Of a stretch of DNA of 48,736 nt, positions 6,309 through 7,307 are shown one piece after another. Made by a program: the position numbers and the translations under genes. Origin of the DNA: Chlamydiae bacterium SM23_39 (GTDB taxonomy: Bacteria; Chlamydiota; Chlamydiia; Chlamydiales; SM23-39). Below the pieces are notes generated by a model that did no database searches, was not told where the DNA came from, and saw nothing but the letters and a program-made list of their open reading frames with translations. The stretch covers positions 1-48,736 of the forward strand of contig LJUH01000002.1 of assembly GCA_001303765.1 (NCBI GenBank), given 5' to 3'. Within the stretch, counting starts at the first letter, position 1. Each line of letters opens with the position of its first letter.

Positions 6309-7307
6309 ATGAGTATTTCAAGTGATGATAAATTAAACAATTGTAAATTGGGGACTTTATATGTATCGAAAGATGTTCTAGAAGATGGTCTTTTACCATT
6401 TCTTGAGGCAAAAGATCTAATGATTTTTGAACTGGTAAGTAAATCTGCTCAAGAATTAATAAAAAAAGCAAATACTTGGAAGGCTTGGAAGCCAGTAATA
6501 GAAAAGAACTTTTCATGTAACGGAAAGTATAGTAGCAAAATTGATGAAAAAGTAGAAGCAAAAAAGCTTTTTATTGAGACCTCTAAGGTAAAGAAAAATT
6601 TAGATTATTATATAACATCTTGGGGCTTATTTAGATGTTTTAAGTTTTTTGAAGAAAGAGGAGATTTCGAAGGATTATCACTTTTATCTGAAAATTCACT
6701 TGAAAGAATACAAGATAATAGAATTTTTTCACAAAGTAGGATAAATTTTGAGGATAAAATTTTTTCAATTATCAAAAAATTTTTAAAAATTAATGAAATT
6801 TCTTATAAAAAGACAGAAAGCAAAGATGAACTCTTAATAAAAAAAGATATCGAAAGTTTAATTAATAATTATTTTTTAAAAGAGACGTTTTTTTTGGGAA
6901 TTGGAATATCAGATATGCTAAAGAATATTGATTTTTTGGTAAATATAATGAGATTGCATGATAAATCTAATTACATATCTTTTCTAAAAAAATTAAATGA
7001 AGTGAAACATTTAATACGGAAACGAAATCTTTGCGCATTATTAATTACAGTTGCTATATTTATTTTAAGTATTGCGATTACCATCTTTTCCATCTTTTGG
7101 CTTATAAATAGTATAAAAAGGATGCATGAAATTAGTGTGTCATTTCCTGGTTCTGAAAAAATACTTTTATATGCATTTCAAGCAGCGTTATGGGGTTGTT
7201 TATGTAATGCATTTATAGGATTTTTTCCGGTAACGGCGGTCTCATGGCATATACTAGCAGAGATTACTCATGAAGAGCTTTGGAAAAAACTCCATTTTGA
7301 TAGTTAA
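6309..7307 (+). CDS. F-box-like protein with a C-terminal bilobed hydrophobic (Inc-like) membrane anchor
   Basis: 332 aa. N-terminal KDVLEDGLLPFLEAKDLMIFELVSKSAQELI is F-box-like. Two hydrophobic segments, aa 241-269 (LCALLITVAIFILSIAITIFSIFWLINSI) and aa 285-320 (ILLYAFQAALWGCLCNAFIGFFPVTAVSWHILAEI), are separated by 15 residues. Opposite strand to the surrounding T3SS genes. Confidence 0.6.
   Translation: MSISSDDKLNNCKLGTLYVSKDVLEDGLLPFLEAKDLMIFELVSKSAQELIKKANTWKAWKPVIEKNFSCNGKYSSKIDEKVEAKKLFIETSKVKKNLDYYITSWGLFRCFKFFEERGDFEGLSLLSENSLERIQDNRIFSQSRINFEDKIFSIIKKFLKINEISYKKTESKDELLIKKDIESLINNYFLKETFFLGIGISDMLKNIDFLVNIMRLHDKSNYISFLKKLNEVKHLIRKRNLCALLITVAIFILSIAITIFSIFWLINSIKRMHEISVSFPGSEKILLYAFQAALWGCLCNAFIGFFPVTAVSWHILAEITHEELWKKLHFDS

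Follow-up and report, generated by a model that had tools for sequence, protein, structure and literature searches.

The type III secretion operon of Chlamydiae bacterium SM23_39 is interrupted between sctO and sctP by a single gene, here called orf332, which runs antisense to both neighbours, has no detectable relatives and encodes a protein with a predicted two-helix hairpin at its C-terminus. The source is an uncultured member of Chlamydiota from an AT-rich, poorly sampled lineage, and the window analyzed is the whole stretch of 48,736 nt (positions 1-48,736, forward strand, of contig LJUH01000002.1, assembly GCA_001303765.1), with a guanine-plus-cytosine (GC) content of 27.6%. With its predicted architecture, orf332 is a plausible new candidate for a known, loosely defined kind of protein, the Inc-type effectors, although with atypical features. 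An earlier sequence-only reading of this DNA had described orf332 as an F-box-like protein on an Inc-type anchor inside the operon; taken as a whole it is partly supported, in that the physical observation holds and the interpretation holds in part.

An antisense gene at the sctO-sctP boundary

The conserved secretion block, from cdsD to pkn5, lies entirely on the minus strand (Table 1), and orf332 physically parts sctN-sctO from sctP-sctQ-pkn5. The interval between sctO and sctP (5730..7395) measured 1666 bp and holds orf332 as its single open reading frame (ORF), in agreement with the 1.67 kb, the one opposite-strand gene and the long AT-rich spacers that had been noted there. Both halves of the operon stay tightly packed, with overlaps of 4 bp between sctN and sctO and between sctP and sctQ. 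The sctP-like gene, which occupies the CdsP position and belongs to no Pfam family, has a C-terminal domain homologous to the gene that 19 chlamydial loci carry between their sctO and sctQ.

orf332 is a real gene with native-like codon usage. At ~27% GC, where ~9% of random codons are stops, an ORF of 332 codons has a chance probability of ~1e-13, as estimated from base composition. A codon log-likelihood model, for which the 36 remaining window genes served as the training set, gave orf332 +0.235 bits per codon in frame and from -0.09 to -0.79 in the other five frames. The GC content falls from the first to the third codon position (GC1 > GC2 > GC3; 0.33, 0.28, 0.20), a pattern also seen in the neighbours, and the plus strand turns purine-rich precisely across orf332, as a mirror image of the surrounding minus-strand genes. 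DNA 100% identical to the window was found in a 6.4-kb Logan contig from SRR5248174, which carries pkn5-sctQ-sctP-spacer-orf332, and in a 1.6-kb JGI contig (3300001753), in which orf332 converges with sctO; since these are two independent assemblies, the arrangement is not an assembly artefact.

We also considered that orf332 might be a non-functional or decaying ORF, i.e., the remnant of an inserted element that is open by chance or was recently inactivated. Such an origin would be in keeping with the lack of homologues, with the long flanking spacers, with a coding score near the bottom of the range of the window genes (0.235, as against 0.24-0.76) and with the absence of a Shine-Dalgarno motif upstream. 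The latter motif, however, is likewise absent from about a third of the window genes, 332 open codons would hardly ever arise by chance in DNA of this composition, the codon-position GC and the purine bias of the coding strand resemble those of native genes, and neither flanking repeats nor similarity to insertion sequences, phages or plasmids was found, so that we hold decay to be very improbable. A start at M38, which would remove the F-box-like segment discussed below, is considered less likely: it has a GAGG upstream, but 11 nt off, whereas position 6309 is the first start codon and has a TATAAT 28 nt upstream.

The searches for relatives define orf332 as an orphan, lineage-specific gene. 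A word-indexed search of 5.8 billion proteins returned orf332 itself only, and when 1.84 billion representatives were searched exhaustively with phmmer, the matches were orf332 and one 5152-aa repeat protein (P0002, E 6.5e-4, matching aa 99-165 of orf332), which was judged spurious on reading. No match above threshold was obtained with Pfam or NCBIfam, the matches to PHROG were sub-threshold, weak and of unknown function, and tblastn revealed no matches among plasmids and phages and nothing similar in 25 sctN-bearing chlamydial loci. A sequence search of the PDB with aa 1-120 gave nothing at E <= 10. A mobile-element origin was also considered and rejected, given the lack of plasmid or phage matches, of direct or inverted repeats on either flank other than low-complexity AT-rich sequence, of coding remnants in the spacers (tblastx) and of any tRNA or Rfam family nearby.

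The sequence-only reading had called the location unusual and had asked for a synteny comparison. For this, the 25 chlamydial loci were gathered with SctN as the seed (an SctO-seeded genome scan gave none); their SctN homologues have 69-79% identity, and 19 of the loci span sctN to sctQ. In 17 of these 19, sctO is directly followed by sctP with a gap or overlap of a few to ~35 bases; in the relative nearest in composition (L022, RIFCSPHIGHO2_12_FULL_27_8), whose SctN is among the closest at 79% identity, sctP begins 3 bp past sctO. Because the two genes abut in 17 of 19 loci, the orf332 insertion is lineage-specific, and it is rare; the location is thus indeed unusual, yet not unique in kind, since other lineages carry toxin-antitoxin or NYN inserts. 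A Parachlamydiales metagenome-assembled genome (MAG; L001) has a Gp49/HigB-like plus HTH_37 pair in antisense orientation between sctN and sctO (9334..10117, minus strand of that locus) and a RelE plus HTH_3 pair between sctO and sctP (10947..11660, plus strand), and a second locus (L006) has an NYN-domain gene between sctN and sctO (9448..10116, plus strand). Like orf332, these are additional genes at the sctN-sctO-sctP boundaries, one of the pairs being antisense and one lying at the same boundary; unlike orf332, they are recognisable selfish or housekeeping modules, and none is an orphan membrane protein. Hence, the gene boundaries of this operon tolerate insertions, and orf332 and the inserts of the relatives mark them as tolerated landing sites, and an operon otherwise rigid across Chlamydiota (sctN-sctO-sctP-sctQ) can survive being split by an antisense gene. 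An orthologue at the same position in related operons, as expected of an Sct component, was not found for orf332 in any of these loci.

Some of the compared loci vary around sctP itself. In L002 an additional ORF between sctO and sctP, which includes a series of masked residues, could represent a split sctP, and in L012, L018 and L024 an additional ORF of 190-240 aa lies between sctP and sctQ. That of L024 repeats the conserved SctP C-terminal domain and that of L012 shares it by eye, which suggests a duplicated or split sctP in some lineages.

The product of orf332 carries a predicted C-terminal hairpin

The orf332 product is composed of a ~235-aa N-terminal part, predicted to be all-helical, and a C-terminal helical hairpin. 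Its N-terminus, MSISSDDKLNNCK, is polar, Ser-rich and unstructured in low-confidence models, which is a non-specific trait. Hydropathy analysis showed no N-terminal hydrophobic segment and hence no signal peptide, so that Sec export of the N-terminal domain is unlikely.

Two C-terminal hydrophobic segments had been placed at nt 7029..7268, 15 residues apart. Both are present, at nt 7029..7265, but the loop between them has 16 residues and the second segment is marginal as a transmembrane helix. Helix 1 is strong: over 19 residues its Hessa sum (a crude, position-independent measure) amounts to -4.35 kcal/mol, the positive flank KHLIRKRN lies just before it, and it is modelled as a helix by AlphaFold2 with a predicted local distance difference test (pLDDT) score of 62-79. 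For helix 2 the corresponding sum is +2.27 over 19 residues, as against +9.4 or more anywhere before residue 215, and AlphaFold2 proposes a helix at residues 282-329 (pLDDT 54-73). Lys and Arg residues number five just before helix 1, three in the loop and two past helix 2 (WKKLH). The single-sequence AlphaFold2 models reached moderate confidence over the hairpin only (pLDDT 54-79); the score was 44 for the full length, 39 for aa 1-235 and ~30 for aa 1-95, and the remainder, helical at ~30-45, is not interpretable.

orf332 as a candidate Inc-type effector

Incs have been defined by two helices of 15-32 residues whose connecting loop measures 3-22 residues (mean 8; filter <30), in proteins with no conserved prokaryotic domain (PMC3048545, Dehoux et al. 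2011). The 16-residue loop of orf332 falls inside both the filter and the known range, its helices, 28 and ~27-35 residues long, were counted as in range when set against the published 15-32, and the protein is chlamydia-specific and free of conserved prokaryotic domains. A hairpin near the C-terminus is found among predicted Incs in CT618 ([213-236]6[242-262] of 266 aa), CT837, CT135 and CT642 (PMC3048545). CT618 and CT837 resemble orf332 in that they are chlamydia-specific, have neither a conserved domain nor a signal peptide, and carry a single hairpin near the C-terminus behind a larger soluble domain. In addition, the neighbourhood of orf332 holds many candidate secretion substrates (orf254, its paralogue and two proteins with hydrophobic domains; see below).

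The likeliest single reading, which we hold tentatively, is that orf332 encodes an Inc-type effector; when all Inc-type readings are combined, the variant with an F-box included, the chances appear slightly better than even. The gene would have landed, or arisen, at the sctO-sctP boundary, and its product would be a type III secretion substrate exported by the adjacent apparatus. The hairpin would then insert the protein into the inclusion membrane with both ends on one side, so that the helical N-terminal domain would face the host cytosol. If it is secreted, orf332 is a new candidate inclusion-membrane effector from a poorly sampled AT-rich chlamydial lineage; its practical value is modest at present, as it is one unvalidated orphan on a metagenome contig.

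Several features of the protein and of its gene weigh against an Inc. The sequence-only reading had taken the hairpin as the hallmark of these proteins, and two predicted transmembrane helices with a loop of fewer than 30 residues do pass the published filter, but that filter is unspecific, as 4-10% of chlamydial proteomes pass it (PMC3048545). In known Incs the loop abounds in P, G, N, S and T and contains no K, R, D or E (PMC3048545); that of orf332 has P, G and S, but also five charged residues, and with its 16 residues it is longer than the mean of 8 in known Incs and than the 6 of typical Inc loops. Helix 2 is only marginally hydrophobic (+2.27 in the crude Hessa sum), unlike Inc hairpins, and the hairpin is C-terminal, whereas in most Incs it lies at residues 30-100 (PMC3048545). 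Furthermore, orf332 has no sequence similarity to any Inc, its gene lies inside the apparatus operon, its structure models are unusable (pLDDT 39-44), and the lack of homologues means that neither conservation nor selection can be called upon as evidence.

The charge pattern equally suits an ordinary bacterial inner-membrane protein, and it is quite possible that orf332 is one: a non-secreted protein with a cytoplasmic N-terminal domain tethered by the hairpin, its F-box resemblance due to chance and its position accidental. The flanks KHLIRKRN and WKKLH agree with the positive-inside rule for an N-in/C-in topology, the charged 16-residue loop differs from those of known Incs, the Inc filter has low specificity, and the insertion of clearly non-effector genes (HigB/HigA-like and RelE/HTH pairs, NYN) in the same operon elsewhere indicates that the site tolerates insertions. 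Three K/R residues in a short periplasm-facing loop would be somewhat unfavourable, however. Moreover, housekeeping membrane proteins tend to be conserved, whereas orf332 is without relatives in any bacterium. In the well-studied Chlamydia, most of the chlamydia-specific hairpin proteins that lack a conserved domain turned out to be Incs. Of the N-termini tested in PMC3048545, 90% acted as type III signals.

The F-box resemblance of orf332

The N-terminal string on which the F-box proposal had been built, LLPFLEAKDLMIFELVSKSAQELI, is present at aa 28-51 of orf332, and the proposal was checked against Pfam. PF00646 was the top Pfam match of the protein; the full length scored 13.4 bits (E 0.078) and aa 1-120 scored 14.8 bits (E 0.029), i.e., 6-7 bits under the curated gathering cut-off of 20.5 bits; PF12937 gave no match at E <= 1. 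The alignment is partial and spans the second and third F-box helices only (profile positions 15-42 of 43, in a domain of ~40-45 residues). F-boxes have an aromatic residue (Trp or Phe) two residues past a V-[CS]-K motif; orf332 reads VSKSAQELI, with A47 at that position, and when the register is extended backwards S20-K21 fall at the Leu-Pro positions. We therefore describe the segment as a weak, partial resemblance, in which three defining sequence features of the family are wanting, and the proposal is not borne out by the Pfam check. When aa 1-120 were shuffled 149 times and compared with Pfam, no F-box match was found at E <= 1, and 10 matches to unrelated families were found at E <= 0.029, so that a blind match this strong arises in ~7% of random sequences. 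The PF00646 match is thus uninformative as a blind annotation, and only suggestive as a targeted test given the abundance of F-boxes in chlamydiae.

A fuller match is given by a second gene of the window, orf254, which begins LNDLPKEMLLAISEYLTIDKAFLLNKVSKYFRSIV, with the canonical LPxE start, and has Phe at the aromatic position (VSKYFRSIV). Its match to PF12937 (E 4e-4, 20.5 bits; cut-off 24.3) spans profile positions 1-38 of 47, and that to PF00646 (E 0.008) spans positions 1-41 of 43. No homologues of orf254 were found in the searches, although it has a tandem paralogue, orf232, with 43% identity (E 8e-26), which starts right where the F-box-like part ends. orf254 is the more convincing candidate by its profile matches, the best in the window, and hence a better starting point than orf332 for F-box effector hunting here. 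A paralogy of orf332 and orf254 was tried and rejected (BLASTP E > 15; shuffled local alignment p 0.54; hhalign 0.3%).

It is doubtful that orf332 holds a genuine Skp1-binding F-box. Were its N-terminus a divergent but genuine F-box and its hairpin an Inc anchor, the protein would be functionally like the membrane-anchored AnkB of Legionella, and, as a type III-secreted Inc, it might through its degenerate F-box still recruit host Skp1/Cullin to the inclusion surface; we consider this unlikely. The rank of PF00646 as top match and the absence of F-box matches among the composition-matched shuffles speak for it, as does the motif L..L...DL.....VSK....LI, which agrees with the helix 2-helix 3 consensus. 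The presence of a better F-box-like protein, orf254, 4.5 kb away in the same organism points in the same direction, and in the Pfam-implied register 5 of 28 residues are identical between the two segments (p 0.006, with the register chosen post hoc). Chlamydiae encode 376 F-box or F-box-like proteins, the members tested have functional type III signals, and the effector families carry the F-box N-terminally, where the segment of orf332 also lies (PMC4209131, Domman et al. 2014). The same paper makes no mention of transmembrane or inclusion-membrane F-box proteins, however, and the score short of the cut-off, the alignment restricted to positions 15-42, the substitutions at the Leu-Pro and Trp positions and the decoy matches to unrelated families, as good or better, all argue in the opposite sense. 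So do a score of -13 (BLOSUM62) for the helix-1 stretch of orf332 against LNDLPKEMLLAISE of orf254, the free local alignment and hhalign results with that protein, the empty PDB search, and the lack of a downstream substrate-binding domain (no LRR, WD40, TPR or ANK domain was detected with Pfam).

Compared with known systems, orf332 shares with the chlamydial F-box effector families (NEX1, NEX2 and others; PMC4209131) an N-terminal F-box-like motif in a protein of effector-like character and the nature of a lineage-specific, fast-evolving gene. Those families pass F-box or F-box-like models, combine this domain with LRR or TPR repeats and are multi-copy, whereas orf332 scores below the cut-off, has neither a Leu-Pro helix nor a repeat domain, occurs as a single copy and bears a membrane hairpin; orf254 stands closer to them than orf332 does. 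The Legionella pneumophila AnkB protein is an F-box effector that is held at the vacuole membrane by host farnesylation (PMC2916131, PMC5506055). It would follow the same logic as orf332, an SCF adaptor on the cytosolic face of the vacuole, only if the F-box of orf332 were real; AnkB has a bona fide F-box and ankyrin repeats, a lipidated CaaX anchor instead of transmembrane helices and type IV secretion, and the two proteins share no homology. With a genuine F-box, ubiquitin ligase would be recruited right at the inclusion membrane, and orf332 would then be the first Inc-hairpin-anchored F-box protein, convergent with the farnesyl-anchored AnkB and encoded in the apparatus operon itself.

Spacers and transcription of the split operon

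Since orf332 is convergent with sctO and divergent from sctP, a transcript that covers both of these genes would have to read through 1.67 kb in antisense; from the gene arrangement, it is simpler to expect that sctP-sctQ-pkn5 has an internal promoter. The insertion would thus split the operon into sctN-sctO and sctP-sctQ-pkn5 and imply an internal promoter for the second block in the lineage of orf332, most probably located in the 579-bp spacer. A site at 5752..5779 had been put forward for this role. It is present, with 9 of 12 consensus positions, but does not exceed chance: the region 4700..8000 holds 18 promoter-like sites, as against 19.1 +/- 4.3 in shuffles. A better site on the sctP side and the best sigma-70-like site for orf332 (Table 1) are, like all promoter sites reported here, consensus matches only.

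The 579-bp spacer had negative coding scores in all six frames, no Rfam or tRNA match, low-complexity repeats only and no coding remnants by tblastx. In the 88-bp spacer between the stop codons of orf332 and sctO no intrinsic terminator-like site was seen; its minus-strand RNA has a moderate fold (z -2.39; 5 of 200 shuffles) and no T-run.

Table 1. Coordinates of orf332, its predicted segments, the surrounding operon and the sites discussed in the text (positions in the 48,736-nt window)
Feature	Position	Strand	Details
orf332	6309..7307	+	332 aa; ATG start; antisense to the flanking sctO and sctP-like gene
F-box-like segment	6399..6482 (aa 31-58)	+	FLEAKDLMIFELVSKSAQELIKKANTWK; PF00646 profile positions 15-42 of 43
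Hydrophobic helix 1 (predicted)	7029..7112 (aa 241-268)	+	LCALLITVAIFILSIAITIFSIFWLINS; Kyte-Doolittle mean up to 2.89
Inter-helix loop (predicted)	7113..7160 (aa 269-284)	+	IKRMHEISVSFPGSEK; 16 residues, 5 charged (K, R, E, E, K)
Hydrophobic helix 2 (predicted, marginal)	7161..7265 (aa 285-319)	+	ILLYAFQAALWGCLCNAFIGFFPVTAVSWHILAEI; Kyte-Doolittle maximum 1.71
Divergent spacer, sctP (-)/orf332 (+)	5730..6308	.	579 bp; 16-24% GC
Convergent spacer, orf332 stop to sctO stop	7308..7395	.	88 bp
Best sigma-70-like site for orf332	6253..6281	+	TTGTAA-17-TATAAT; 10/12; ends 28 nt before the ATG
sctP promoter candidate of the sequence-only reading	5752..5779	-	TTGCCT-16-CATAAT; 9/12
Better sctP-side site	6163..6135	-	TTAACA-17-TAAAAT; 10/12; extended TG
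cdsD	10785..12488	-	cdsE/F-sized ORFs come next
cdsG	9852..10274	-	NF052304, E 1e-46
CT668-position gene	9201..9848	-
sctN	7881..9194	-	TIGR02546, E 6e-192
sctO (CdsO)	7396..7884	-	PF16789 YscO-like, E 2.2e-37
sctP-like gene (CdsP position)	4848..5729	-
sctQ	3769..4851	-	TIGR02551, E 3e-31
pkn5 (kinase)	2216..3766	-
orf254	1001..1765	-	450 bp downstream of pkn5; N-terminus LNDLPKEMLLAISEYL...VSKYFRSIV
orf232	118..816	-	Tandem paralogue of orf254

Other features of the window

Two adjacent plus-strand genes encode proteins with Gly/Ala-rich hydrophobic domains of 48-64 aa, of the classic Inc/translocator type (15782..16573, domain at aa 89-152; 16586..17137, domain at aa 62-109). Both have strong Shine-Dalgarno motifs and no Pfam family above the cut-off, and in the region 14092..17137 they are preceded by chaperone-sized ORFs (14092..14475 and 15320..15763). 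At the other end of the secretion block, pkn5 is not succeeded by a secretin gene, unlike in C. trachomatis.

A surface-protein pair unusual for chlamydia is found further along the plus strand, where a collagen-repeat protein with a BclA_C-like C-terminus (21500..22246) adjoins an inverse-autotransporter beta-domain protein (22278..23141). It is followed at 23939..28531 (plus strand) by two large ORFs of 969 and 541 aa without a Pfam match at E <= 0.01. Finally, a complete arginine deiminase pathway cluster at 39642..45914 (plus strand) comprises two amino-acid permeases, arginine deiminase, an amino-acid (carbamate) kinase family protein and ornithine carbamoyltransferase; it recalls anaerobic chlamydial lineages, and an Anoxychlamydiales MAG (L007, 29% GC) is among the closest SctN relatives.

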